Positions 241 through 62,140 of a stretch of DNA of 64,000 nucleotides are shown piece after piece (the stretch's first letter is position 1; each line of letters begins with the position of its first letter). Below the pieces are notes generated by a model. It was not told the DNA's origin and searched no databases. It saw only the letters and a program-made list of their open reading frames with translations. The translations under genes were made by a program, and so were the position numbers. The stretch spans positions 1,454-65,453 of the forward strand of contig LCMS01000002.1 in assembly GCA_001002765.1 (NCBI GenBank). Direction: 5' to 3'. Origin of the DNA: Candidatus Uhrbacteria bacterium GW2011_GWE2_46_68 (GTDB lineage: Bacteria > Patescibacteriota > Patescibacteriia > UBA9934 > GWF2-40-263).

Positions 241-272
241 GGTCGGTAGGGGCAAGCGGCCGTTCGCCCCTA
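241..272. repeat. GC-rich near-perfect palindrome GTAGGGGCAAGCGGCCGTTCGCCCCTAC (copy 1 of 3; arms slightly imperfect)
   Basis: Read directly. Same palindrome recurs at 53586-53613 and 54458-54485. Confidence 0.8.
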
Positions 273-379
273 CATGAGTCGATTATGATTGACAAAATCG
301 CCAAAAATTGATACAAAACCACGTCTTCTGTGCGCGGAAACCCCGCGTAAAGAAGCTTGAAAAAGCTCTTTCCAACACC

Positions 380-432
380 ACAACAAGTCACCACCCCATC
401 CCCCTTCGTTCCGCCAACGGCGGGACTTCGGG
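380..432 (+). repeat. Structured repeat copy A (ATCCCCC-TTCG-TTCCGCC-AAC-GGCGGGAC-TTCG-GGGGGAT), in the 5' leader of the CDS starting at 464
   Basis: Shares its core with 19028-19080 and 27744-27800. Outer and inner stems are maintained by compensatory changes. A possible -35/-10 promoter (TTGACA at 286-291) lies upstream. Confidence 0.7.
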
Positions 433-463
433 GGATAAACCACCGCGCACGGAGAAAATCACC

Positions 464-2935
464 ATGTCTATTTTTGACCTTCACAAAGTACTGACCGAGT
501 CAGGTGGACTCCTCATTGGAGAAAGCGTGGAAATGGCCGCCACTGATGTGGCCGAAGCCCTTCCTGGAAAAGAGCTTGTCAAACAGCTCCTCAAGAGGAT
601 TCCAGGGGCAAGGCCTCTTGCCGCTCATGCGGCTAATCCACTTTTTTTCAAAGGCCTTGGTATTGCCATGGCCGCGGTTTTGCCCGCAATGGCAGACCAG
701 GTGCTTCCAGGAAACAACAATGCCAATGTGGCCAGAGCTCGCGATATCATCAAAAAGCTCGGACCACACCTGTCGATCGGCTTTGGCCACGGTATCGCCA
801 ATCAGTTCGAGTATGAGCGGGCTGTTGAACAGGCCATTGATGATGCGGATGCTGATCGCCTTCCCGCGATTGTGACTGCAACCGACGGTTCTGCCCCGGT
901 TATGGTTGCCTGGAGTCCGGAGCTTGAGGGGTATCATCCCTCCATGCCCAATGATTCCAAGGATCCTGACGCGGTCAAAAAGGAACCCTATGTAGTCTTG
1001 TGCTCCACCTATCAGAGAATGAAGCAGCGCCTGGGCGCCGGATTCAAGGAAGTTTTCATGACCAAGGATGACGCCGAACTTCGCGGGTTTCGTCCCGCCG
1101 GCTGTTGTCAGGTCACGATTTCCGCAATCGAGGCTGGAAAGAAAAAGGGGAAACCCGGATTTTTCGAAGCAATCGGTGAAGAGGGTCGTGCGCTTACCCG
1201 CGCGTTTGTGAGGACTGCGATTTTCAAGGATCCCACAGGCAAGCAAGTCGGCATTGATTTTGGCAAAGAGATTTTGCCCCACATGCCCCCCGAGCATTGG
1301 GCATACCTTGGAAACCATATCAAGGCAGACCCTGTTACCGGCCTTCTGTCGGATGAAGATTATGATGAGGTCGTAGGCCATATTCGAGTCTTCGGAAAGG
1401 GGACTTTGGAATTTGGCACCAAGATCCTTCTGGCGCTTCAATGGGCATATCGGCAACTCAATGCACACCCGAAGATTGCCAAGGCAGGAAAGATTGCAGG
1501 CATTATCGTTATTGTCTTGACCATTATTTTCGGCATCTTCGCAGTCTTTGCTGGGATCGCGACAGTCGTTGGGTCGATCGTCCTCTACCTCGTGGCCTCC
1601 TTGGCCGCGCATGGTGGTTGGGCGGTTGGTCTTATGGCGCTTGCAATCGGGTTGCTCTTTTTGTGTCGGATTCCCCTGGCCTCCAGTCAGGCAATGACCA
1701 ATTGGATCGCGAAGTGGATCCCCGGTGAACAAAAGACCGTGACCTGGATGAAGCAGGTTGCCGATGAGGCGTTTGCATTTTTCGCAACGTCGTCGTGGTT
1801 TTTCTTCTGGCTCGTGATTTTTGATGCCGGATTTGTCGCGCGCATTTCGATGTGGTTCCTGTATTTTTTGACCTGGGCCGGACTTCACTACGCAAACAAG
1901 AGCTTCAACTTCTCTTGGGTGCGTGATGTGGAATTCGCCAGGGCAAAGATTTTCCAAGTTCTCACTATGGCGCAGATCGCCCTTATCTTCTTGCTCACAC
2001 TTGCGGGCTGGCCGGAGATTCCCACCACAGACCTCACGATTGAAAGTCGCACGGTTTCATTGACCAAGTCAGATGGGACGGTTTACAGCCCCACCGCGTC
2101 ACTGATTCCTACTCCCCAGGGGACGTATTTCCTGGCCGAGGACGTGATGGGTCAATCCAAGGCCATCCAGATGGCACAGACAAATGGTTTGATCACCCTC
2201 GATTCCGGAGCGCGTTTCGATCTGCCTGGTTATCAGCTTAAGGAAGAGGATCTGGGAAACGGGAAGGTGACCTACAAGGTTGCCACAGCTCCCAAGATTT
2301 TTTTCTGGGAGTGGATGCCGCATTGGATCGGGTATGGGCCGCAAGAGTTGGGAAGTAACGAGGAAATCATTGCGCGTGTTCTCGAGATTGACGCTGCTCG
2401 ACAGCTTACCTTGGCTTCGGCTGAGGGGCTTTTGGCCGCAGAAGTGGATCCCGCACTCCAAGACGCCAAGGCTTACTACCTTGATCATGCCAAGCATAAG
2501 GATCGTGTGTGGCGGTGGGTGGGGACTTTCCTGCTCCTGCCCCTGACCTTTATCGGGTATTGGTTCTTGCGAAAGACCGAGGTGGTCGAGAGCAAGTTTG
2601 GAAACTCGGTTGCGGTGAGCAATCAGCCCAACAATATCGGTCGCAGTCTTCTCTTCGTTGTTCCACTTATGGCCATGTTCGGTCTGTGGAGTGGTCCGGC
2701 AAGCGAAGCGGGATGTCATGGATGTGGTGGTTGCAGTTGTGTACATCATCCAACCGCTTCTCACGGTTGCGGGTGTAGCGGATGTTCCTTGCCTATGCCA
2801 AACACCTCGTCTTCCCAAAAGTCAAAAGCTAAGGGGAGTGAGGAGACGTCTGATACAGAGAACGAAGATTTCAAGCGGCTTTGCCGCGAGTCGACGCCAG
2901 AGGGTCGACAGACTCTCGGTTGCCCAAATCCTTAG
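464..2935 (+). CDS. Large polytopic membrane protein of unknown function with a Cys/His-rich C-terminal tail (CHGCGGCSCVHH...HGCGCSGCS)
   Basis: ORF 308..2935. Start moved to the ATG at 464, which has a GGAGA RBS, because the upstream codons translate the repeat element. About 8 hydrophobic helices sit in the middle. No family recognised. Confidence 0.5.
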   Translation: MSIFDLHKVLTESGGLLIGESVEMAATDVAEALPGKELVKQLLKRIPGARPLAAHAANPLFFKGLGIAMAAVLPAMADQVLPGNNNANVARARDIIKKLGPHLSIGFGHGIANQFEYERAVEQAIDDADADRLPAIVTATDGSAPVMVAWSPELEGYHPSMPNDSKDPDAVKKEPYVVLCSTYQRMKQRLGAGFKEVFMTKDDAELRGFRPAGCCQVTISAIEAGKKKGKPGFFEAIGEEGRALTRAFVRTAIFKDPTGKQVGIDFGKEILPHMPPEHWAYLGNHIKADPVTGLLSDEDYDEVVGHIRVFGKGTLEFGTKILLALQWAYRQLNAHPKIAKAGKIAGIIVIVLTIIFGIFAVFAGIATVVGSIVLYLVASLAAHGGWAVGLMALAIGLLFLCRIPLASSQAMTNWIAKWIPGEQKTVTWMKQVADEAFAFFATSSWFFFWLVIFDAGFVARISMWFLYFLTWAGLHYANKSFNFSWVRDVEFARAKIFQVLTMAQIALIFLLTLAGWPEIPTTDLTIESRTVSLTKSDGTVYSPTASLIPTPQGTYFLAEDVMGQSKAIQMAQTNGLITLDSGARFDLPGYQLKEEDLGNGKVTYKVATAPKIFFWEWMPHWIGYGPQELGSNEEIIARVLEIDAARQLTLASAEGLLAAEVDPALQDAKAYYLDHAKHKDRVWRWVGTFLLLPLTFIGYWFLRKTEVVESKFGNSVAVSNQPNNIGRSLLFVVPLMAMFGLWSGPASEAGCHGCGGCSCVHHPTASHGCGCSGCSLPMPNTSSSQKSKAKGSEETSDTENEDFKRLCRESTPEGRQTLGCPNP

Positions 2936-32060: not shown

Positions 32061-35157
<3,097 letters not shown>

Positions 35158-35222
35158 ACTGAAAGGTTGTATCCTGTATGATTCTTCTTTGTAAGGAATC
35201 TTTTTATTAAAAGGGTTTCAAT

Positions 35223-35338
35223 GTCTCGGTGCCATTTCCAGGAGGGTCACACCTGTTCCCATCCCGAACACAGTCGTTAAGCCTCCTTGGGCCGATGGTA
35301 GTGCGTATGCGCGAGAGTAGGTGGGCGCCGGGACATTG
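35223..35338 (+). rRNA. rrf: 5S ribosomal RNA
   Basis: CCCATCCCGAACACAG...GCCGATGGTAGTG...GCGAGAGTAGG matches 5S conserved blocks. A T-run follows. Confidence 0.85.
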
Positions 35339-49675: not shown

Positions 49676-50599
49676 CTAGTGTTTTTTATGATGATGTCGT
49701 CGCGCAAGTTTCCAAATGATCCACATCAAAACAAGAATGGGGAAAAGAAGGCCACCGCCTACAATCACAAACCAAATGCCGAAGTTGATGAGATTTTGAC
49801 CTAAAACCACAAATGCTTGAGCCGCTTGTTTGACCGTTGTCCACGGACGGAATTCTTTGGAAGGAAGGGTGATAAGCGTCTCTTCGGAAAGGGAAACCGA
49901 GATGGTGGAATACATGGTACGATCATCCAGGTAATTGATACGTCCTTGTAAGACTTCGATTTCGGAGCGGATTTCTCCCAAAGCCTCTTGGACTTTCAAA
50001 ATTTCTTCCACGGTTGTGGCGCGATTCAAGATAAGAAGATACGCAGCTTCTTGCGCTTGCGCGGTTGTAAGTCGCGCCATGTAGTCAGTGTATTCCTCGG
50101 TGACATCCGTGCCGGTTGTGGATTCCTCGGATACAAATGTTGCTAGGTCTTTGAGAGATTGAATGGCCGCTTCAAAGGAAGCCGAAGGAATGCGAATATT
50201 GATCGATCCTGTCTTAGTCCCATTTTCCGATTCATTGACATAGGAGGATTGAACAAATCCTTTGAGCGTTGATGTCAGTTCGGTTGTTTGGGTGATCGCT
50301 TCATCTACCTTGTCAACAATAAGCGTCAGTGAACCGGTTTTGATAATTTTTTGACTGACATCAGTCGCGCTCGTTGCCTCGTCATAGGTGACGAGAGAGT
50401 CATTCATGACAAATGATCGTGTGGAAGGAGCACTCGCCGCACCGGCAAACATACCAAAAGATTCTGATTGGAAGGATCCCACGTTTCCTGTTGCCACAAG
50501 AGAAAGGCGTACCACGATGGCAGTAAAAATAACGAGTGCGATGACAGCTACAATGATACCCAAAGGAATCAAGATCCAACGTAAAAGATGTTTATGCAT
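49676..50599 (-). CDS. DUF4349 domain membrane protein
   Basis: N- and C-terminal TM helices with a central DUF4349-like region. Sits between the two transketolase subunit genes. Confidence 0.5.
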   Translation of the reverse strand: MHKHLLRWILIPLGIIVAVIALVIFTAIVVRLSLVATGNVGSFQSESFGMFAGAASAPSTRSFVMNDSLVTYDEATSATDVSQKIIKTGSLTLIVDKVDEAITQTTELTSTLKGFVQSSYVNESENGTKTGSINIRIPSASFEAAIQSLKDLATFVSEESTTGTDVTEEYTDYMARLTTAQAQEAAYLLILNRATTVEEILKVQEALGEIRSEIEVLQGRINYLDDRTMYSTISVSLSEETLITLPSKEFRPWTTVKQAAQAFVVLGQNLINFGIWFVIVGGGLLFPILVLMWIIWKLARRHHHKKH

Positions 50600-51585: not shown

Positions 51586-52380
51586 TTATTCAACAACGAT
51601 CGTTCCCGTGTTGCTTTCATCATAGCGATCGTAGTACTCGTAGGTGCCTGACTCATCAAAATATCTTGCCCATGAACGGCCGGCGCTGATCGTGCCGCTG
51701 CCCCATTCTTTGTCTTCGTCCGAGGCAGAGTGGTTTTCCGTATCGGTATTGTTCCAGCGGATTGCAGTGCCTACCTCGATCGTGATCGAAGTATCACTGT
51801 ATCCCGCAGAGGAGATATCGATTTCCGCGGCTTCCTGGAGATCCTTGTCCTCATCAATACTATAGGCATCGGCTTGCTCGGCATCAGGATCAAAACTTGA
51901 GGCTGTATCAATACTTGCTCCCATGGTGTAGTTGCCAAAGAATCCATCTGGAAGATCATCAATTTGCTTGTTCCAATCAGATCCGTATAAAGCTTCCGCG
52001 ATCTCGGCAGTTTTGACCCAGCGCAAGGTTCCGTTGGAACCGATGGCATAGGTGGTCGGCGAGCTTGTCACTTTGATCATTTTTACCCCCGGTTTGTAGG
52101 TGATATTTCCACCGAGTTGAACCGTGGCCAGATCAGCATCAGAGACCCATCTCACATCATCAAAGTTTTCGTACCAGGTGAAATAGATTTTGTCGTTTGG
52201 AAAAACATAACGGAATCCGTCAACACTGTAGTAGTACACTGCAGAAAAACTTTCACCGCGAAAGAGATCACCAGCCTGAAGATCATCCACAGAAATCAAA
52301 GAAGACGCTTTGGCTGGGGAAAGGGCACAAATTCCAAACACCGCAACCAAGATACTCAGATAGGCAAGTCCTTTTTTCAT
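51586..52380 (-). CDS. Secreted hypothetical protein
   Basis: Signal peptide. Acidic C-terminal region. No family recognised. Confidence 0.35.
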   Translation of the reverse strand: MKKGLAYLSILVAVFGICALSPAKASSLISVDDLQAGDLFRGESFSAVYYYSVDGFRYVFPNDKIYFTWYENFDDVRWVSDADLATVQLGGNITYKPGVKMIKVTSSPTTYAIGSNGTLRWVKTAEIAEALYGSDWNKQIDDLPDGFFGNYTMGASIDTASSFDPDAEQADAYSIDEDKDLQEAAEIDISSAGYSDTSITIEVGTAIRWNNTDTENHSASDEDKEWGSGTISAGRSWARYFDESGTYEYYDRYDESNTGTIVVE

Positions 52381-52457
52381 AGAGCATGTGAAAATAATGA
52401 TAAAGATAAGGATAGTATAGCATGGGTTTTTGTAAGCGAGGAGCAAGGGTGTGGATT

Positions 52458-53102
52458 TCAACAAAAGGATTGAAGGCGCTTGAGGGCTTGAAGCGGGTCT
52501 TGTGCGGAAAAAATGAGTGATGCCACAGAAAAACGGGTGATCCCGGCTTCTTTTAGGGAAGGAATGAGGTTTTCAGTTACCCCGCCGTCAATCTCGATGG
52601 TAATTTGCGGATAAAGGTGATGAAGATGGTGAATTTTTTCGAGGATATATTCTCCTTCAAACGGTTGGCCAGAGGATCCCGGGTGTACGCCCAAGATGGT
52701 GGCTTGATCTACATGTGGAAGAATCGTTAGAGCTTCTTCAATGGGAGTCTCCGGATTAAACGCGACGGCCGTTTCGAGGTGAAGATAATCTTTGGCATGA
52801 GAAAGGATGGTGCCGACCGGTCTATCTAGTTCATGGTGAACAATGACACGTTTGGTTCCGGGCACAAACTTTTTCCATTCCTCGATAATGGGAAGAGGAT
52901 TTTCGATCATGAGATGGAGTTCAAATTGTGCCTGTGTGTCAAGAGCTCCTACATGATGCGCATCAAACCAACTGACGTGATCATAGAGACTTCCGTCGAG
53001 GATATCGACTTGAATGATGGGGGCGAGGGATTCAATCTGGCGGAGTTTACGTTCAAACTCTTGTTTTGACTCTGCAAGAATGGCGGGGATGATTTCTATC
53101 AT
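52458..53102 (-). CDS. rpe: Ribulose-phosphate 3-epimerase
   Basis: IIPAILA, VDILDGS, HLMIENP and GVTENLI motifs. The start overlaps the rpiB stop (ATGA). Confidence 0.85.
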   Translation of the reverse strand: MIEIIPAILAESKQEFERKLRQIESLAPIIQVDILDGSLYDHVSWFDAHHVGALDTQAQFELHLMIENPLPIIEEWKKFVPGTKRVIVHHELDRPVGTILSHAKDYLHLETAVAFNPETPIEEALTILPHVDQATILGVHPGSSGQPFEGEYILEKIHHLHHLYPQITIEIDGGVTENLIPSLKEAGITRFSVASLIFSAQDPLQALKRLQSFC

Positions 53103-53563
53103 AGGGGATAGATATGCGATTCGATTTCAGAGAGTTTTTGAAGACGACGTAGGTGGCGTTCTTCTCCACTAAAATCAGTTTGGAGCCAAAGGGTGGTGAT
53201 CTTCAGGACTTCTTGTTTTGAAAGATGTCGGGCAGGAAGGCAGAGAACATTGCTGTCATCGTCGGTTCGACTTGTTTGCGCAACCTGTTCATCAAAACCT
53301 GTTGCCGCACGAATGCCTTTTACTTTGTTTGCCACGATAGAAACTCCTTGGGCATTGGCGCAAAGAAGAATGCCACGTGCCAGGGGGTCGGTAGCGACTC
53401 TTTGAGCCACGGCATAGCTAAAGTCAGGATAATCATCATCCTCGACCAAATGAGCATTACCAAGATCAGTCACTTCAAAACCTTGCGCAATAAGGTCGGT
53501 TTTGAGGGTTTCTTTGTATTCCCATCCCGCATGATCCGCTCCGATATAAAGATGTGGTTTCAT
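53099..53563 (-). CDS. rpiB: Ribose-5-phosphate isomerase B
   Basis: LYIGADHAGWEYK and the RpiB/LacAB fold pattern. Confidence 0.85.
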   Translation of the reverse strand: MKPHLYIGADHAGWEYKETLKTDLIAQGFEVTDLGNAHLVEDDDYPDFSYAVAQRVATDPLARGILLCANAQGVSIVANKVKGIRAATGFDEQVAQTSRTDDDSNVLCLPARHLSKQEVLKITTLWLQTDFSGEERHLRRLQKLSEIESHIYPL

Positions 53564-53585
53564 ATGCGGGTATTATAACAGATGA

Positions 53586-53613
53586 CGGGTGGGTAGGGGC
53601 GAACGGCCGTTCG
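53586..53613. repeat. Perfect palindrome TAGGGGCGAACGG|CCGTTCGCCCCTA (copy 2)
   Basis: Read directly. Intergenic, downstream of the alpha-CTD-like gene. Confidence 0.85.
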
Positions 53614-53679
53614 CCCCTACCACAGATGGATATTGATGGTGTTTTAAAAACAAAAAAACCTCTCTTTTGTCCGCAGACG

Positions 53680-54414
53680 TTAGAGAGGTCGGTCGTATTG
53701 TTCGTGAGCCCTGAGTGCAGTGATCACGAGATCAAGAGGGTAAAGACCCCTGAGATAGAGTGCTGATTTAAGTGCCGCCTTCTTTTTCCCCAGAGCATCG
53801 ACGTGATCGTGGATCTGTTGGACGGTGGGGTTCATGCCATGCTTTTGGAAGAAAAAGCAGATTGCGGAGTGGGTCGTTCCTTCCTGCACATTCACTCCTA
53901 TCCCCAAGCGCAACGCATCGAGAAGTTTTGAAAATGCACTGATTTCATCTACGATTTGACGCAGCCTTTGTTCCAATTGATGTTTGGCACTTTCGAGAAG
54001 TGTTGAAAGTGTTTGCTCATCATTCATGGCGGCTTGCTCCTCTTGAGGTTTTGGTGGGTGAGAGGGTCGGCGCTTCCTTTCATACATCTTCTTTTCCTCG
54101 TTCCAATCCTCAAGGAGAGGCATATCCTTTTTCTCGAGCTCTGCGTTGATGTGAGCTTGGTATTTACGCAAATCCATTCCCAGGCTGAACCGCAATTCAG
54201 CCAGCATTTCTTTGATTTCGTTGAGAGTTTTTTTCCCAAGATTTCGGAGGGAATGGATTTCTTCTTCGGTCCGCGCCACGAGGTGAGCCAGGGTTTCAAT
54301 GGAAGCTTCATAAAGACGGTTTTCAGCTCTCTTACTCCAGTTCAATTCCGTGCATGGCACCAGAAGTCTATCAACAAAATCAGATGCTTCTTCGTTAAGT
54401 GTGGGAAGAGGCAT
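53680..54414 (-). CDS. Stand-alone RNA polymerase alpha-subunit C-terminal-domain (alpha-CTD, HhH)-like protein
   Basis: NWSKRAENRLYEASIETLAHLVARTEEEIHSLRNLGKKTLNEIKEMLAELRFSLGM closely parallels RpoA alpha-CTD ([23 protein letters not shown]). No RpoA N-terminal domain. Start at MPLPTL (54414) with a GGAGA RBS. Confidence 0.6.
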   Translation of the reverse strand: MPLPTLNEEASDFVDRLLVPCTELNWSKRAENRLYEASIETLAHLVARTEEEIHSLRNLGKKTLNEIKEMLAELRFSLGMDLRKYQAHINAELEKKDMPLLEDWNEEKKMYERKRRPSHPPKPQEEQAAMNDEQTLSTLLESAKHQLEQRLRQIVDEISAFSKLLDALRLGIGVNVQEGTTHSAICFFFQKHGMNPTVQQIHDHVDALGKKKAALKSALYLRGLYPLDLVITALRAHEQYDRPL

Positions 54415-54457
54415 GGTTGTCTCCTTCGGGGTTTTTGATGGAAAGAACACGTGTATG

Positions 54458-54485
54458 TAGGGGTGAACGGCCGTTCACCCCTACA
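54458..54485. repeat. Perfect palindrome TAGGGGTGAACGG|CCGTTCACCCCTA (copy 3, with a compensated C>T/G>A change)
   Basis: Read directly. Lies in the divergent region between the alpha-CTD-like gene and ileS. Confidence 0.85.
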
Positions 54486-54588
54486 GGCGATTTTGCCCTC
54501 ATACGTGACCACAATAAAACCAACGCGTCAATCGGTTTGCTCGGCGGCCTACATTTTGGTACCATAAAGCTTACAAAATCATCAAAAT

Positions 54589-57483
54589 ATGGCCGATTCT
54601 CAACCAAATCTCCCGGAGCAGGAAAAAGAAACCCTGGCCTTTTGGGAGAAACAAGAGATTTTTAAAAAGTCTTTGCAAAAAAAAGCCCCAAAGGGCAATT
54701 TTGTTTTTTTTGAAGGTCCGCCTACTGCTAATGGGCGTCCGGGGATCCATCATGCCGAGGCGCGAGCGTTCAAAGACGCCATCCCACGATTCCGTACCAT
54801 GCAAGGTTATCATGTGGGTCGTAAAGGCGGCTGGGATACCCATGGCCTCCCTGTGGAAATTGAAGTGGAAAAGCAATTGGGGTTTAAGAGCAAGGCTGAA
54901 ATTGAAGGTTATGGAGTTGAGGCATTTAATCAACAGTGTCGGGAGAGTGTGTGGAAGTATTTGAATGAATGGATCGAGTTTACCAAGCGTATGGGATATT
55001 GGGTGGATTTGGATGACGCGTATATCACCTACAAACCCGAATATGTGGAGTCTCTCTGGTGGTGTATCAAACAAATTTGGGATAAAGGACTTTTGTATAA
55101 AGATTATCGAGTGACCCCACATTGTCCGCGCTGTGGGACATCGCTTTCTTCCCACGAGTTATCACAAGGATATAAGGATGTGGAGGATCCGGCGATTACG
55201 ATTGCATTTAAAGTGACTTCGAAAGCGGATGGATCAACACCAAGTGAGTCGGAATATCTGGTCGCTTGGACCACCACTCCTTGGACTTTGCCCGGGAATG
55301 TGGCACTCGCTGTGGGAGAAGATGTGGATTATGTGAAGGTGAAGCAAGGAGATAAATATTATTGGCTGGCCAAAGCACGATTGTCTTTTGTGATGAGCGG
55401 AGAGTACGAAGTTGTAGAGGAACAAAAAGGGAAGGTGTTGATCGGTTATGCTTATGAACCTTTATATCCTTTTGTAAAAGATGCGATTGCCGGAACACCG
55501 GAAGGGGAAAAGAAAGCATGGATCGTGGTGGGTGCCGATTTTGTTTCGATTGAGGATGGATCTGGAATTGTGCATACGGCCGTCATGTATGGAGTGGAGG
55601 ATTTTGAACTCGGACAAAAAATAGGACTTCCCAAATATCACATGGTGGATTTGAACGGAAAGTTTGTGAATGGAGCCGGACCCTATGCCGGAAGGTTTGT
55701 AAAAAGTGCGGATGGGGCGATTATGGATGATTTGGAAGCGCGGGGGTTATTGCTTAAACGTGAAAAAATTACTCATACTTATCCATTTTGTTGGCGTTGT
55801 AAGTCACCGGTTATTTATTATGCCAAGGATTCTTGGTATATCAAGATGAGCCAAATGCGTGAAAAATTGATGGCGGAAAACGAAAAAATTCATTGGGAGC
55901 CGGAACATTTGAAAGATGGGAGATTTGGCGAATGGTTGCGTGAGGCAAAAGACTGGGCTTTTTCCCGCGAGCGCTATTGGGGAACCCCGCTTCCTGTCTG
56001 GGAGTGTAATGCTTGCAAGGAACAGATGTGTATGGGGAGTTTTGAAGAGTTGCGTGCGCAAGCAACCACTCCACTTCATGATCCTTTTGATCCTCATCGT
56101 CCGTTTGTGGATCAAGTGGAGGTGAAATGCCAAAAGTGTGGGGGGGTGGCAAAACGCGTGCCCGATGTGATTGACGTATGGTTTGATTCGGGTTGTATGC
56201 CGTTTGCTCAGTGGCATTATCCATTTGAGAACAAAGAAAAGATTGATGAGGGGATTGAGTATCCGGCGGATTTTATCTCCGAGGCGATCGATCAAACCCG
56301 CGGATGGTTTTATACCTTACTTGCCGTGGCTGTATTGCTTGGAAAAGAACGACCGTTTAAGAACGTGATTTGTTTGGGGCATGTCCTTGATGCGGAAGGA
56401 AAAAAGATGAGTAAGTCTTTAGGGAATATAGTAATGCCCATGGAAATGATGGAAAAATACGGAGCCGATGCTGTGCGTTGGTATATGTACACGATCAATC
56501 AACCTGGGGAAGGAAAACGGTTTGATGAAAAAACACTTTCTGAAATGGTCAAAAAGAATTTTACTATTTTGCTTAACGTCATGCGGTTTTACGAGATGTT
56601 TGCCAAGGATGTTCCCACAGCAAATCAAGTAGAGTCGGCTCATATAATGGATCGATGGATTCTCGCACGATTACACGAATTGATCCGCAACAACACAAAA
56701 TGGCTTGAAGAGTACAAGGTACTTGAGCCCGCGCGAGCGATCAGCGAGTTCATCAATGATCTTTCCACCTGGTATGTCCGTCGCAGTCGCGAGCGGTGTA
56801 AGGGGGCAGATGAAGAAAGCGCTTTGGCAGTCGCCACTTTACGCGTGGTTCTTTCCGCACTTTCTAAGCTCATGGCGCCTTTCACTCCTTTTATTGCCGA
56901 AACGGTTTACAAAGCCGTGGATCACACAAAAGAATCTGTCCATCTGGAAGATTGGCCGGTTGTAGATTTGATAAAAATTGATCAAGAACTTTTGGACGAG
57001 ATGGGAAAGGCGCGATCTACTGTTTCAAAAGCCTTAGAAAAACGAGCCGAATCAGGAATCAACGTACGTCAGGTATTGTCGATGATGACAATCACCCGTC
57101 CTTCAGGAGCAATGTCTAATGAGGTTATTGAGGTCGTTAAAGATGAGGTGAATGTCCGTGAGATCAGAATAGAAAAAGGAGAGCATGCCGTTCACCTTGA
57201 CCTCACTCTTACTCCAGAGCTTGTACGGGAAGGGACGGTGCGTGAGGTAATTCGTCGTGTGAATGCGATGCGTAAAGAAGCCAATCTCACGATTGGTGAC
57301 CGTATCATTTTGTTTGTGATAAGCGAGCATCCTGAAGTGAAATTAGCTTTGGAAGAACACAAGGACGCTTTGCTTAGAGGAACACTTGCCAATCAACTTG
57401 GGACACAGGGAGACGCGCCAGAAGGAGCAGAAGCATTCCGCGTGAATGAATATGATATGCAGATAGGGTTTAAAAAAGTGTAA
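54589..57483 (+). CDS. ileS: Isoleucine--tRNA ligase (long, eukaryote/archaea-like type)
   Basis: PPTANGRPGIHH (HIGH-region variant), DWAFSRERYWGTPLP, KMSKSLGN. 964 aa. A terminator follows at 57485-57525. Confidence 0.85.
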   Translation: MADSQPNLPEQEKETLAFWEKQEIFKKSLQKKAPKGNFVFFEGPPTANGRPGIHHAEARAFKDAIPRFRTMQGYHVGRKGGWDTHGLPVEIEVEKQLGFKSKAEIEGYGVEAFNQQCRESVWKYLNEWIEFTKRMGYWVDLDDAYITYKPEYVESLWWCIKQIWDKGLLYKDYRVTPHCPRCGTSLSSHELSQGYKDVEDPAITIAFKVTSKADGSTPSESEYLVAWTTTPWTLPGNVALAVGEDVDYVKVKQGDKYYWLAKARLSFVMSGEYEVVEEQKGKVLIGYAYEPLYPFVKDAIAGTPEGEKKAWIVVGADFVSIEDGSGIVHTAVMYGVEDFELGQKIGLPKYHMVDLNGKFVNGAGPYAGRFVKSADGAIMDDLEARGLLLKREKITHTYPFCWRCKSPVIYYAKDSWYIKMSQMREKLMAENEKIHWEPEHLKDGRFGEWLREAKDWAFSRERYWGTPLPVWECNACKEQMCMGSFEELRAQATTPLHDPFDPHRPFVDQVEVKCQKCGGVAKRVPDVIDVWFDSGCMPFAQWHYPFENKEKIDEGIEYPADFISEAIDQTRGWFYTLLAVAVLLGKERPFKNVICLGHVLDAEGKKMSKSLGNIVMPMEMMEKYGADAVRWYMYTINQPGEGKRFDEKTLSEMVKKNFTILLNVMRFYEMFAKDVPTANQVESAHIMDRWILARLHELIRNNTKWLEEYKVLEPARAISEFINDLSTWYVRRSRERCKGADEESALAVATLRVVLSALSKLMAPFTPFIAETVYKAVDHTKESVHLEDWPVVDLIKIDQELLDEMGKARSTVSKALEKRAESGINVRQVLSMMTITRPSGAMSNEVIEVVKDEVNVREIRIEKGEHAVHLDLTLTPELVREGTVREVIRRVNAMRKEANLTIGDRIILFVISEHPEVKLALEEHKDALLRGTLANQLGTQGDAPEGAEAFRVNEYDMQIGFKKV

Positions 57484-57547: not shown

Positions 57548-58324
57548 ATGCCTATAGATTTTTCCAAGTTGTTTACGATGCTCGGCCTTTCGGAAACCGA
57601 GACAAAGATTTATTTCGCTTCTTTGCATTTGGGCCCCACAAGCGTTCAGGAGATTGCAAAGAAAGCTCGGCTATCACGCACCGCTGCTTATGACGCGATT
57701 GCCTCCTTACAAGATCGAGGATTGCTCTCCACCTATGAACGTGGAAAAAAGAAATTTTTTACGGTAGAGGATCCGGAGCGCGCAATCTCCTATTTTCGTA
57801 ATCAAGTGAGCAACCTCAATGATCAGTTGGGTGTGTTACACACTTCACTTTCCGAGCTCAAGATGTTAGCTGGAGGAGAAAGACCGTCTGCACGTTTTTA
57901 TGAGGGGAAGGATGCGATTCAGGCTGTTTTTCATGACGTCGCTTTGGTTTCACCTTCTATCCGTTATGAGGTGGCCAACTATGATGATGTGTATGAGCAT
58001 TTGGATATAGGACAACTTGAAAGTTATCGGCGCATTTTGCACGAAAAGAAAATCAAAATGAAGATGATTTTTTGCGGTAAGCTGCGAAAGATTTCTCCTC
58101 ACACTGAGTATTATCGAATGCCTTCAAGCGTGGGAGAATTTCACGGAGATATCTGGTTGTATGGAAATCGTGTAGCTTTTGTTTCTTTTATCGGCAAGCC
58201 GATCACGGTTATCATTGAAAGTGAGGCTTTTTCTCATGTAGCAAAAGCACTTTATGAGACAGCTTTGCTTGGGTGTGAAAAGGTGGAAGGTCCTGACATT
58301 TTTCCTCAAAACACAGAGAAATAG
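57548..58324 (+). CDS. TrmB-family transcriptional regulator
   Basis: The N-terminal wHTH (LGLSETETKIYFASLHLGPTSVQEIAKKARLSRTAAYDAIASLQDRGLL) matches TrmB. Confidence 0.6.
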   Translation: MPIDFSKLFTMLGLSETETKIYFASLHLGPTSVQEIAKKARLSRTAAYDAIASLQDRGLLSTYERGKKKFFTVEDPERAISYFRNQVSNLNDQLGVLHTSLSELKMLAGGERPSARFYEGKDAIQAVFHDVALVSPSIRYEVANYDDVYEHLDIGQLESYRRILHEKKIKMKMIFCGKLRKISPHTEYYRMPSSVGEFHGDIWLYGNRVAFVSFIGKPITVIIESEAFSHVAKALYETALLGCEKVEGPDIFPQNTEK

Positions 58325-58616
58325 CTTGTTTGTCAAGAAAAAAAGAACATTTTTTTAGGCTTAGATAAGCCTTTTTTATTTCATGAGCACCGGGAACCAT
58401 TGACAAGAGAGCTTTCATTATGATAGTCTAACGCGTTCGTAAAAACGAACATAAAGAGAGAGAGGCTGCAAAAGCAATGAAGGAGAGAGAATGTATATTA
58501 TTTCGTTTCCGGAATCCTGTTTGTGTGCCCCATGCTTGCACATAAATATATTTCTGGATCAAAAAAGCTACCCAAAAAACGGGTCGTTTTTTGATTTACG
58601 GTATAATGGAAAATAT

Positions 58617-59483
58617 ATGATAAAGAAAAAGACCGTGGTCATTGTCCCGACTAATGATGCAGAGGCGATGTTGATCGCTCTATTGGCTGAAAAGAGAGGG
58701 TTTGATGTCCTGCGTTCCAAGCAGAGTCATGGAGCTTCTTTGGATCATGGGCGTGATTATGTAGAAGCTATAAAGAAAGGAGAGTGGCAACGGGTTATTG
58801 TTGTGGAAATGCCAGGGATACAGACAGAAGAACGTATACGTTCTTTGGGGTGTGACATCGTCATTATCGATCATCATAATTACACTGGACTAGAACGAGC
58901 ATTTTATCCGCATTCTCATCGAACTCTTCCTTCTTCATTGGAACAATTTTTACACGTGGCTCGGATTACCGATCATCAATTGGAGAAATGGGGATTTTCT
59001 CCAAAACAGGTGAAGGGGGTAGGACTTTTTGATCGGGGATTTATTTGGGCATTGCAAAAAGAGGGATATACGAAAAAGGAGATACAAGAAGTACTTCAAT
59101 ATGAGGAAGAGTTGATGGGGGAAAGAAAACCATTGTCAGAAGATAAAAAAAGGTTAGAGGCTGTGGAAGAGACGTGGATGTATCATAAGAAATGGAAGGA
59201 GTTTTTTTTGGTGGAAAACAACAGTGTTTATCTTTTGCGAGGAGCTCTTTCCATTTTTCTTGCATTGAAACGTAGGAAACCCACTCCTCTTATTCTTTGG
59301 GAAAAGCGGCATCATCGTTTTTATGTGCAAGAGACACCATGGGCACAGACACTTTATAAACATTTTGGAGGATTTACTTATGGATCGCAGCAAAATTGGG
59401 GGTACCGCAATGATCAAGAAAAAAAGAAATTATGTCTTGATGATATTTTGATATTTTTAGCATCAAGGAAAGAGACATCATAG
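58617..59483 (+). CDS. Hypothetical protein
   Basis: ORF only. Start at MIKKK. No family recognised. Confidence 0.35.
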   Translation: MIKKKTVVIVPTNDAEAMLIALLAEKRGFDVLRSKQSHGASLDHGRDYVEAIKKGEWQRVIVVEMPGIQTEERIRSLGCDIVIIDHHNYTGLERAFYPHSHRTLPSSLEQFLHVARITDHQLEKWGFSPKQVKGVGLFDRGFIWALQKEGYTKKEIQEVLQYEEELMGERKPLSEDKKRLEAVEETWMYHKKWKEFFLVENNSVYLLRGALSIFLALKRRKPTPLILWEKRHHRFYVQETPWAQTLYKHFGGFTYGSQQNWGYRNDQEKKKLCLDDILIFLASRKETS

Positions 59484-60497: not shown

Positions 60498-61939
<1,442 letters not shown>

Positions 61940-62140
61940 CAATAAAAACCTTGTTAAAAAACAAGGCTCTGCTCATTTGTTTTTTTGTTCGTTGCAATCA
62001 CAGAAAAGACAACATCTTTTTGTGATCGACAGGGAATGTTCTATTGGAAAGATCATACACTTTTCACAATTGAAAACTCATTCGGGATGAAGCCTACGAA
62101 TGAGTTTTTGAAATAAACGAGATTGTGAACAGGTGGCGTA

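Follow-up and report, generated by a model that had tools for sequence, protein, structure and literature searches.

What is the C-terminal domain (CTD) of the RNA polymerase (RNAP) alpha subunit doing at the front of a protein that is otherwise unlike alpha? This question is raised by a 244-codon minus-strand gene in a stretch of 64,000 nucleotides from Candidatus Uhrbacteria bacterium GW2011_GWE2_46_68 (contig LCMS01000002.1), referred to here as the window, whose numbering is used throughout. An earlier prediction made from the sequence alone had described the product as a stand-alone alpha-CTD protein. Following this up, we are nearly certain that the locus is a true gene of the chromosome, monocistronic and belonging to a narrow clade of Uhrbacteria, that it encodes a paralogue of the alpha-CTD followed by a flexible Pro-rich linker and an orphan four-helix domain, and that the protein is neither an alpha subunit nor an rpoA fragment.

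The proposed match between the N-terminal part and the alpha-CTD was borne out by profile search, by alignment to PDB sequences and by fold comparison. The Pfam family PF03118 (RNA_pol_A_CTD) matches residues 14–73 over profile positions 8–67 of 67, with an expectation value (E) of 1.3e-14 and 54.1 bits against a gathering threshold of 23.8. In addition, eight NCBIfam RpoA equivalog models match residues 8–96 (best E 6.6e-17), solely via their last 60–90 positions, and their scores of 32–61 bits (best 53–61) compare with full-length cutoffs of 228–523 (TIGR02027 and the NF0035xx models). Residues 4–85 align with E. coli alpha 240–321 (1COO; E=5e-10), including the NLGKKTLNEIKEMLAELRFSLGM match, and residues 80–96 correspond to the C-terminal tail of some RpoAs (NF003513, 7YE1, H. 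pylori 2MAX). Comparison of the predicted fold with the PDB using Foldseek gave a root-mean-square deviation of 0.6–0.7 Å over ~67 residues at 42–45% identity, with the DNA-bound structures 3N4M, 3N97 and 9ZUM among the targets; the Foldseek probability was 1.00 and the target-normalised template modelling (TM) score was 0.85–0.95 for 3N4M, 9ZUM and 1Z3E. The alpha N-terminal dimerisation and assembly domain is missing, as had been stated: a Pfam scan of the protein at E<=1 returned neither PF01000 (RNA_pol_A_bac) nor PF01193 (RNA_pol_L), and the RpoA models reach the protein with their C-terminal ends only. No second alpha-CTD was found by tblastn elsewhere in the window.

The gene carries its own signals at both ends. 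Its open reading frame (ORF) opens with an ATG at 54414, 6 nt downstream of a GGAGA Shine-Dalgarno sequence read directly from the DNA, and closes with a TAA. A longer version starting at GTG 54450 was rejected because the orthologues all start with MPLP. Over the 3′ end folds an intrinsic terminator with a 9-bp outer stem, an inner stem and a U7 tract (RNAfold −17.9 kcal/mol, z=−3.6), a fold matched by 0/200 shuffled sequences. Hairpin and T-tract are kept at all orthologous loci (in lineages L001, L008, L009, L020 and L021), and with this terminator of its own the gene forms its own transcription unit. The identical 244-aa protein recurs on 20 independently assembled contigs (NCBI, JGI, ENA and Logan); the NCBI accessions, all from Candidatus Uhrbacteria, are HBK33448.1, HCB19125.1, KKU33334.1 and KKU41683.1. 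Some records in public databases including UniRef call it "hypothetical protein", others "DNA-directed RNA polymerase subunit alpha". The latter is a misannotation of a paralogue that has only the domain.

A leftover 3′ piece of a disrupted rpoA, the possibility that would have overturned the stand-alone interpretation, was rejected on several grounds. The CTD comes first in the protein, with a ribosome-binding site and an ATG of its own in front, and the gene ends in its own terminator. The locus lies between ileS and the rpiB-rpe-tkt genes and not in the S13-S11-S4-rpoA-L17 cluster, and the same two-domain architecture recurs at the same position in four related lineages. As a candidate RpoA (TIGR02027 / NF0035xx), the protein falls short in assembly domain, whole-protein score and cluster location alike. 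The alpha subunit is universally essential, and a canonical rpoA is therefore expected in the same genome; neither the window nor the adjoining 10 kb past its start contains one. When the alpha-CTD part served as the query of a profile search, no match exceeded 151 aa, and most matches were rpoA fragments from short contigs. Two matches on long contigs, which we inspected, were not true stand-alone proteins. Both are frameshifted rpoA genes in the ribosomal cluster, split into separate N-terminal-domain (NTD) and CTD ORFs (L010 3301–4324 and L011 3471–4312; ENA ERZ25039554 and ERZ25039537). Such artefacts can mimic stand-alone alpha-CTD proteins in database surveys.

What follows the CTD had been described as about 150 unrelated residues rich in Lys and Glu. 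This composition holds for residues 86–131, where K and E make up 30%, and does not extend to residues 132–244 (11.5%), which form a conserved helical domain. The structure of the whole protein was predicted with AlphaFold2. From three sequences only, the model was unusable (predicted local distance difference test, pLDDT, 39.8); adding 93 RpoA-CTD fragments cured this, and the final alignment of six family members plus these fragments gave a mean pLDDT of 89.1. Residues 1–110 reach at least 90 (90–98 in the alpha-CTD), the linker falls below 50 at residues 121–128, and residues 141–220 of the C-terminal domain lie at 89–97, so that the predicted four-helix domain is a confident one. The predicted TM score (pTM) of 0.52 is consistent with two domains that fold independently and are joined by a flexible tether. 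Directly behind the CTD, a family-specific extension has P99, W104, Y111 and P117 invariant in 6/6 members and a pLDDT of ~96 up to residue 110. The linker, by comparison, contains indels and is 22–63% identical between family members. The helices of the C-terminal domain carry a regular hydrophobic stripe with 3–4 spacing, and the tail HE(Q/S)Y(D/E)xPL is conserved in the family. Searches of this domain against Pfam, PDB sequences, PHROGs and PADLOC yielded nothing significant; a match of helix 198–220 to a GCN4-type coiled coil (E ~0.2) is weak and serves as a hint only. A degenerate second alpha-CTD was ruled out by hhalign (probability 0.1%). On the model, the C-terminal part is thus best described as a linker plus the conserved four-helix domain of an orphan family.

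The family is small. Among 1.84 billion cluster representatives, an exhaustive HMMER search with residues 80–244 hit no more than three clusters, and a profile search of 5.8 billion proteins found seven family proteins, all from related Uhrbacteria lineages. Six of the seven are full-length, and each of these six combines an N-terminal PF03118 domain, a variable Pro-rich linker and the conserved C-terminal domain, with intact ORFs and 56 invariant columns. There were no members in 185,579 GTDB species-representative genomes, none in IMG/VR or GenBank phages apart from rpoA-like CTD matches, and JGI metagenome contigs yielded members from no lineage other than the known ones. Wherever the flanks are known, the gene lies between ileS and rpiB.

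Within this neighbourhood, the alpha-CTD gene evolves fastest. We compared the window genome with its close relatives L001, L008 and L009. IleS is 92%, 87% and 84% identical to the window protein in L001, L008 and L009, respectively (84–92% over all pairs of the four lineages), the TrmB-like regulator 98% and 90% in L001 and L008, the product of a 330-aa ORF (58491–59483) 85% and 72% in the same two, and RpiB, Rpe, TktN, DUF4349 and the cupredoxin-like ORF 70–86% in L009. The alpha-CTD protein keeps 73%, 45.5% and 40% in L001, L008 and L009. Overall, this amounts to 39–73% identity versus 84–92% for IleS and 70–98% for the other neighbours, with the two domains diverging about equally. As a consequence of this fast divergence, the narrow range of the family may partly reflect homologues that have diverged beyond detection. 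The ratio of non-synonymous to synonymous substitution rates (dN/dS) against the L001 orthologue is 0.35 overall; by segment, it falls from 0.46 in the alpha-CTD to 0.37 in the linker and 0.26 in the C-terminal domain, and IleS has 0.047. The depletion of non-synonymous changes is significant (Fisher p=5e-8 for the entire gene, and 4e-6 when the C-terminal domain is taken by itself), and the gene is under purifying selection though fast-evolving.

These data also bear on the idea that the gene has no function at all, being a decaying duplicate of the rpoA 3′ end or an annotation or assembly artefact. Its fast divergence, the ATA at the start position and the premature TAG of the L009 copy, and a repeat insertion that replaced conserved upstream sequence in the window genome would fit such decay. 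However, purifying selection is significant for the gene as a whole and for each of the two domains, the ORFs are intact with their many invariant columns in six members, Shine-Dalgarno sequence and terminator are conserved, and the same sequence was assembled independently 20 times. Moreover, a confidently folding 113-residue domain foreign to RpoA cannot derive from rpoA. We regard this explanation as extremely unlikely.

What the gene has retained of the alpha-CTD becomes clear from a comparison of the six family members with the 93 RpoA fragments, in which residue n of the window protein equals E. coli alpha residue n+236. We take the DNA-binding "265 determinant" of E. coli alpha to consist of V264, R265, N268, C269, G296, K298, S299 and E302, and the "261 determinant", which contacts region 4 of sigma-70, to consist of D259 and E261. 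The core equivalents in the window protein are R29 (R265), N32 (N268), N58 (N294), G60 (G296), K62 (K298) and T63 (S299), and E302 is also present. R265, N294, G296, E302 and G315 are invariant both in 6/6 family members and in all fragments. S299 is T in 6/6 members (98% S in the fragments), K298 is K in 4/6 and H in 2/6 (100% K), and N268 is N in 3/6 and H in 3/6 (99% N). The 265 determinant of the window protein thus keeps R, N, G, K and E and has T for S299, and its replacements V264 to K and C269 to R add positive charge to the DNA-binding face. Other positions have drifted. The sigma region 4 contact E261 (97% E in the fragments) reads N/E/T/D/Q/Q in the family and is not conserved across it; V264 (100% V) has become K/R/P/A, C269 (99% C) R/A, K291 (90% K) S/G, F295 (100% F; L in E. 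coli) L/V and R/K317 (93% K or R) D/H/F, and K271 (72% K) and R297 (100% R; K in E. coli) are variable. On the aligned residues, the conserved property appears to be the helix-hairpin-helix core that contacts DNA, including its minor-groove arginine, and not the protein-contact surfaces of RpoA. This pattern of a kept DNA-contact core and lost RpoA-specific surfaces favours a DNA-binding role and speaks against a faithful decoy.

We therefore consider, as a tentative reading to which we give somewhat below an even chance, that the protein is a small transcription or nucleoid factor specific to this lineage, a DNA binder in which a recruited alpha-CTD is combined with a helical domain for self-association or partner binding. 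The alpha-CTD module would bind the minor groove of A/T-rich DNA resembling UP elements via its retained helix-hairpin-helix core, and the helical C-terminal domain would supply self-association or hold a partner. Acting in trans as a lineage-specific transcription or nucleoid factor, the protein would compete with or supplement RNAP's own alpha-CTDs at A/T-rich DNA upstream of promoters. Its layout would be the inverse of alpha, in which the anchoring domain precedes linker and CTD.

One alternative explanation could be based on mimicry. Some phage proteins hijack or modify the alpha-CTD, for example by ADP-ribosylation of R265. A free alpha-CTD might titrate factors that dock on the alpha-CTD of RNAP, such as activators, NusA-like factors or phage proteins, with the helical domain sequestering them or passing on a signal. 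A protein in such a conflict would be expected to evolve fast, as this one does relative to all its neighbours; R265 is invariant, the alpha-CTD fold is near-perfect, and phages do encode proteins with alpha-CTD domains. However, E261, V264, C269, K271, K291, F295, R297 and R/K317, mostly conserved among the RpoA fragments, are variable or replaced in the family, and this loss of RpoA-invariant surfaces disfavours a faithful mimic. In addition, dN/dS is below 1 in every segment, no defence family matches beyond a domain-level similarity to PglW, and the conserved neighbourhood is free of defence or phage genes. Taken together, a decoy role seems unlikely to us. A more elaborate form would have the domain copied from rpoA and turned into a fast-evolving, trans-acting alpha-CTD mimic, which would occupy UP-like DNA or intercept factors aimed at the alpha-CTD, whether of phage origin or produced by the bacterium that hosts this episymbiotic lineage of the candidate phyla radiation (CPR), via a new helical effector or oligomerisation domain. 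We hold this version to be decidedly doubtful; if true, the protein would belong to a new class of transcription modulator, and its fast divergence would be the trace of a molecular arms race.

The inverted layout also invites the thought of an RNAP accessory subunit, whose helical domain would dock on RNA polymerase or sigma and deliver a third alpha-CTD supplied in trans, so as to widen or change how DNA upstream of promoters is recognised. An anchor, a flexible linker and an alpha-CTD with its DNA-contact core kept would indeed resemble alpha, and the conserved C-terminal tail could serve as a docking motif. A conserved RNAP surface is nevertheless hard to square with a C-terminal domain that is ~40% identical where housekeeping proteins retain 84–92%, the family is limited to a handful of genomes, and Pfam and PDB sequence searches revealed no similarity to known RNAP-binding proteins. 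For us, this proposal is likewise improbable.

The position of the gene suggests a more local role. As had been noted, it shares a divergent intergenic region with ileS (54589–57483, plus strand), with a spacer of 174 bp. A nearly invariant, A/T-rich block at ~54553–54588, directly 5′ of the ileS ATG at 54589, is conserved in the four lineages beyond the level of coding sequence and contains the imperfect palindrome TTTTGGTACCATAA at 54554–54567. The protein might bind DNA in the exclusive service of the divergent ileS promoter, of the downstream rpiB-rpe-tkt pentose-phosphate cluster or of both, and its place between ileS and rpiB-rpe-tktN-DUF4349-tktC is kept wherever flanks are known. This position carries little functional information, however, as the genomes with the gene are closely related and syntenic in general, and between the gene and rpiB stands the conserved terminator. 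Furthermore, the TrmB-family regulator beside ileS (57548–58324, 90–98% conserved) is an equally good candidate to act at such an operator; the ileS-upstream block is a candidate ileS promoter or operator, possibly for this TrmB-family regulator. We consider a dedicated local regulator very unlikely.

Upstream of the alpha-CTD gene itself, a TTGACG hexamer resembling a −35 element is invariant in all four orthologous regions, followed after 17 nt by TTAGAT in the three other lineages. TTGACG-17-TTAGAT as a promoter was downgraded to a conserved block, TTAGAT having no A at position 2, and a consensus promoter scan made no call in the window, L001 or L008; a promoter role of the block is tentative from its sequence. 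In the window genome, the 19 nt that come after this 17-nt spacer in L001, L008 and L009 (TAGATGATCTTCCCTCTC-like) are replaced by a segment of ~59 nt. This segment contains one of the GC palindromes that the original prediction saw bounding the gene, and perfect 28-nt copies do lie on either side of it. The palindrome, GTAGGGGYGAACGGCCGTTCRCCCCTAC, has three intergenic copies in the window versus 0 expected by chance, and two degenerate copies lie just outside (L022 14707 and 15307); at the orthologous loci of four related lineages, there is none. It looks like a recently spreading element of the repetitive extragenic palindromic (REP) type or of the type of miniature inverted-repeat transposable elements (MITEs). 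These palindromes are a recent genome-specific repeat and no part of the design of the alpha-CTD gene.

Several observations weigh against a DNA-binding transcription or nucleoid factor, the reading we prefer. The insertion of the palindrome-bearing segment in place of conserved upstream sequence makes expression in the window genome uncertain. N268 is H and C269 is A in half of the family and K298 is H in two members, and conservation of the DNA-binding determinant is therefore uneven. The net charge of the alpha-CTD part is −3, although the E. coli alpha-CTD, as counted from the alignment, is likewise slightly acidic. An identity of 39–45% where neighbours keep 70–90% is unusual for a general DNA-binding regulator. 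Finally, the L009 orthologue (L009 3703–4473) has ATA at the start position, with an in-frame upstream ATG extending the called ORF, and a CAG-to-TAG change that places a stop six codons ahead of the usual one. These defects could reflect incipient pseudogenisation or sequence error, and they suggest that the gene is dispensable.

Table 1. Features of the alpha-CTD gene and its flanks, in window coordinates
Feature	Position	Strand	Basis or remark
Coding sequence of the alpha-CTD paralogue, 244 aa	53683..54414	-	ORF and translation; stop codon 53680-53682
Shine-Dalgarno sequence GGAG	54421..54424	-	Direct sequence reading; GAAGGAGAC also present in L001
Alpha-CTD, residues 8-96	54127..54393	-	PF03118, RpoA NCBIfam models, 1COO, AlphaFold2, Foldseek
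Pfam core of the alpha-CTD, residues 14-73	54196-54375	-	PF03118
Family-specific conserved extension, residues 97-117	54064..54126	-	Motif MPLLxxWNxxxxxY..RP
Pro-rich, K/E-rich linker of variable length, residues ~113-131	54022..54078	-	Low pLDDT, indels, composition
Predicted orphan C-terminal four-helix domain, residues 132-244	53683..54021	-	Helices 132-169, 183-192, 198-220, 226-238
Intrinsic terminator	53646..53690	-	Hairpin over last codons and stop codon, then U7 tract
TTGACG hexamer, -35-like	54526..54531	-	Invariant in all four orthologous upstream regions
Window-specific segment of ~59 nt with palindrome, 5′ region of gene	54449..54507	.	Replaces 19 nt
28-nt GC palindrome	54457-54484	.	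Within the 54449..54507 segment
28-nt GC palindrome, other flanking copy	53593..53620	.	Between terminator and rpiB start; not at the same place in L001
28-nt GC palindrome, third window copy	246-273		Intergenic

The genes downstream follow in the order rpiB, rpe, a secreted cupredoxin-like protein, tktN, DUF4349 and tktC. The cupredoxin-like product of 292 aa (51586–52464, minus strand; 86% identical in L009) begins with a hydrophobic segment and ends in a C-terminus that weakly resembles cupredoxins, and the DUF4349 protein is encoded at 49676–50599 (minus strand; 70% identical in L009). Both genes are embedded in the rpiB-rpe-tktN-tktC pentose-phosphate cluster, an arrangement kept in L009. 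The rpiB ATG stands 8 nt 3′ of a perfect TATAAT, a hexamer conserved in L001 (ATG and hexamer together at 53561–53577, minus strand), and the rpiB mRNA may therefore be leaderless; the ileS ATG likewise has no Shine-Dalgarno sequence in front. Further away in the window, the rRNA genes are unlinked, with 23S/5S at 32063–35333 (plus strand) and 16S at 60502–61946 (minus strand), ~25 kb apart. The 23S match of 3095 nt against a model of 2925 nt implies insertions totalling ~170 nt, and the 16S match covers 1445 nt against a model of 1533 nt. An 875-aa ORF at 308–2935 (plus strand) has no Pfam match on record, and just past the window start four small genes resembling type IV secretion system pilins lie in a row (L022 16525–18216).

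CPR bacteria have tiny genomes with very few recognisable transcription factors. Here, a DNA-reading module of core RNAP would have been reused, together with a new partner domain, in a factor specific to the lineage, a general example of how a free copy of a polymerase subdomain might regulate. If the protein binds UP-like DNA or RNAP, it would offer a handle on promoter-upstream recognition in an uncultured phylum. On the practical side, the wrong label "subunit alpha" could inflate the rpoA count of marker-gene surveys by a second rpoA.

How, then, does the protein compare with known carriers of the alpha-CTD fold? With the CTD of RpoA itself (E. coli 1COO, 1LB2 and 3N4M; Caulobacter 9ZUM) it shares the fold and the helix-hairpin-helix core. 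In contrast to RpoA, its CTD is N-terminal and unattached to an assembly domain, its locus is a different one, its evolution is far faster than that of its housekeeping neighbours, and its family does not keep the RpoA positions E261, V264, C269, K271, K291, F295 and R297. Diverged or paralogous alpha-CTDs also occur in Francisella alpha1/alpha2 (6WMP) and in alpha-CTDs with C-terminal extensions (H. pylori 2MAX and RpoA of the NF003513 type), but those are complete, RNAP-assembling alpha subunits, whereas the window protein has no assembly domain. Closer in size are phage proteins annotated as containing an RNA polymerase alpha subunit C-terminal domain (in BFVD; for example A0A6J5L490 with 131 aa and A0A2P1JY10 of Rhodococcus phage Finch with 240 aa), which have the alpha-CTD fold in 110–240 aa, likewise lack the alpha-NTD and are functionally uncharacterised. 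The similarity to them is weak and restricted to the CTD (Foldseek E ~1e-2, identity 22–28%), the C-terminal domain is not shared, and no PHROG matches the window protein at E<0.005. The 95-aa hypothetical family NF005841 (PRK07758), a short stand-alone alpha-CTD-like protein without a C-terminal helical domain, matches residues 27–77; with 20.7 bits against a cutoff of 115 and a length of 244 aa, the window protein is not a member. Similarly, residues ~17–90 resemble the alpha-CTD-like domain of the BREX type 2 kinase PglW (NCBIfam E=1.1e-4, PADLOC E ~2e-5), but PglW is a protein of ~1400 aa with kinase domains, the score of 20 bits compares with a cutoff of 990, and the neighbours are housekeeping genes, with no BREX genes among them. 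A literature search on the function of alpha-CTD homologues or paralogues outside RpoA returned nothing relevant. The protein thus belongs only to the PF03118 domain family and fails membership as RpoA, NF005841, PglW or phage protein. That proteins other than RpoA have taken up the alpha-CTD fold can already be seen in databases, from the phage proteins, PglW and NF005841; what is new here is the C-terminal domain and the overall architecture, which are confined to a handful of metagenome-assembled genomes.

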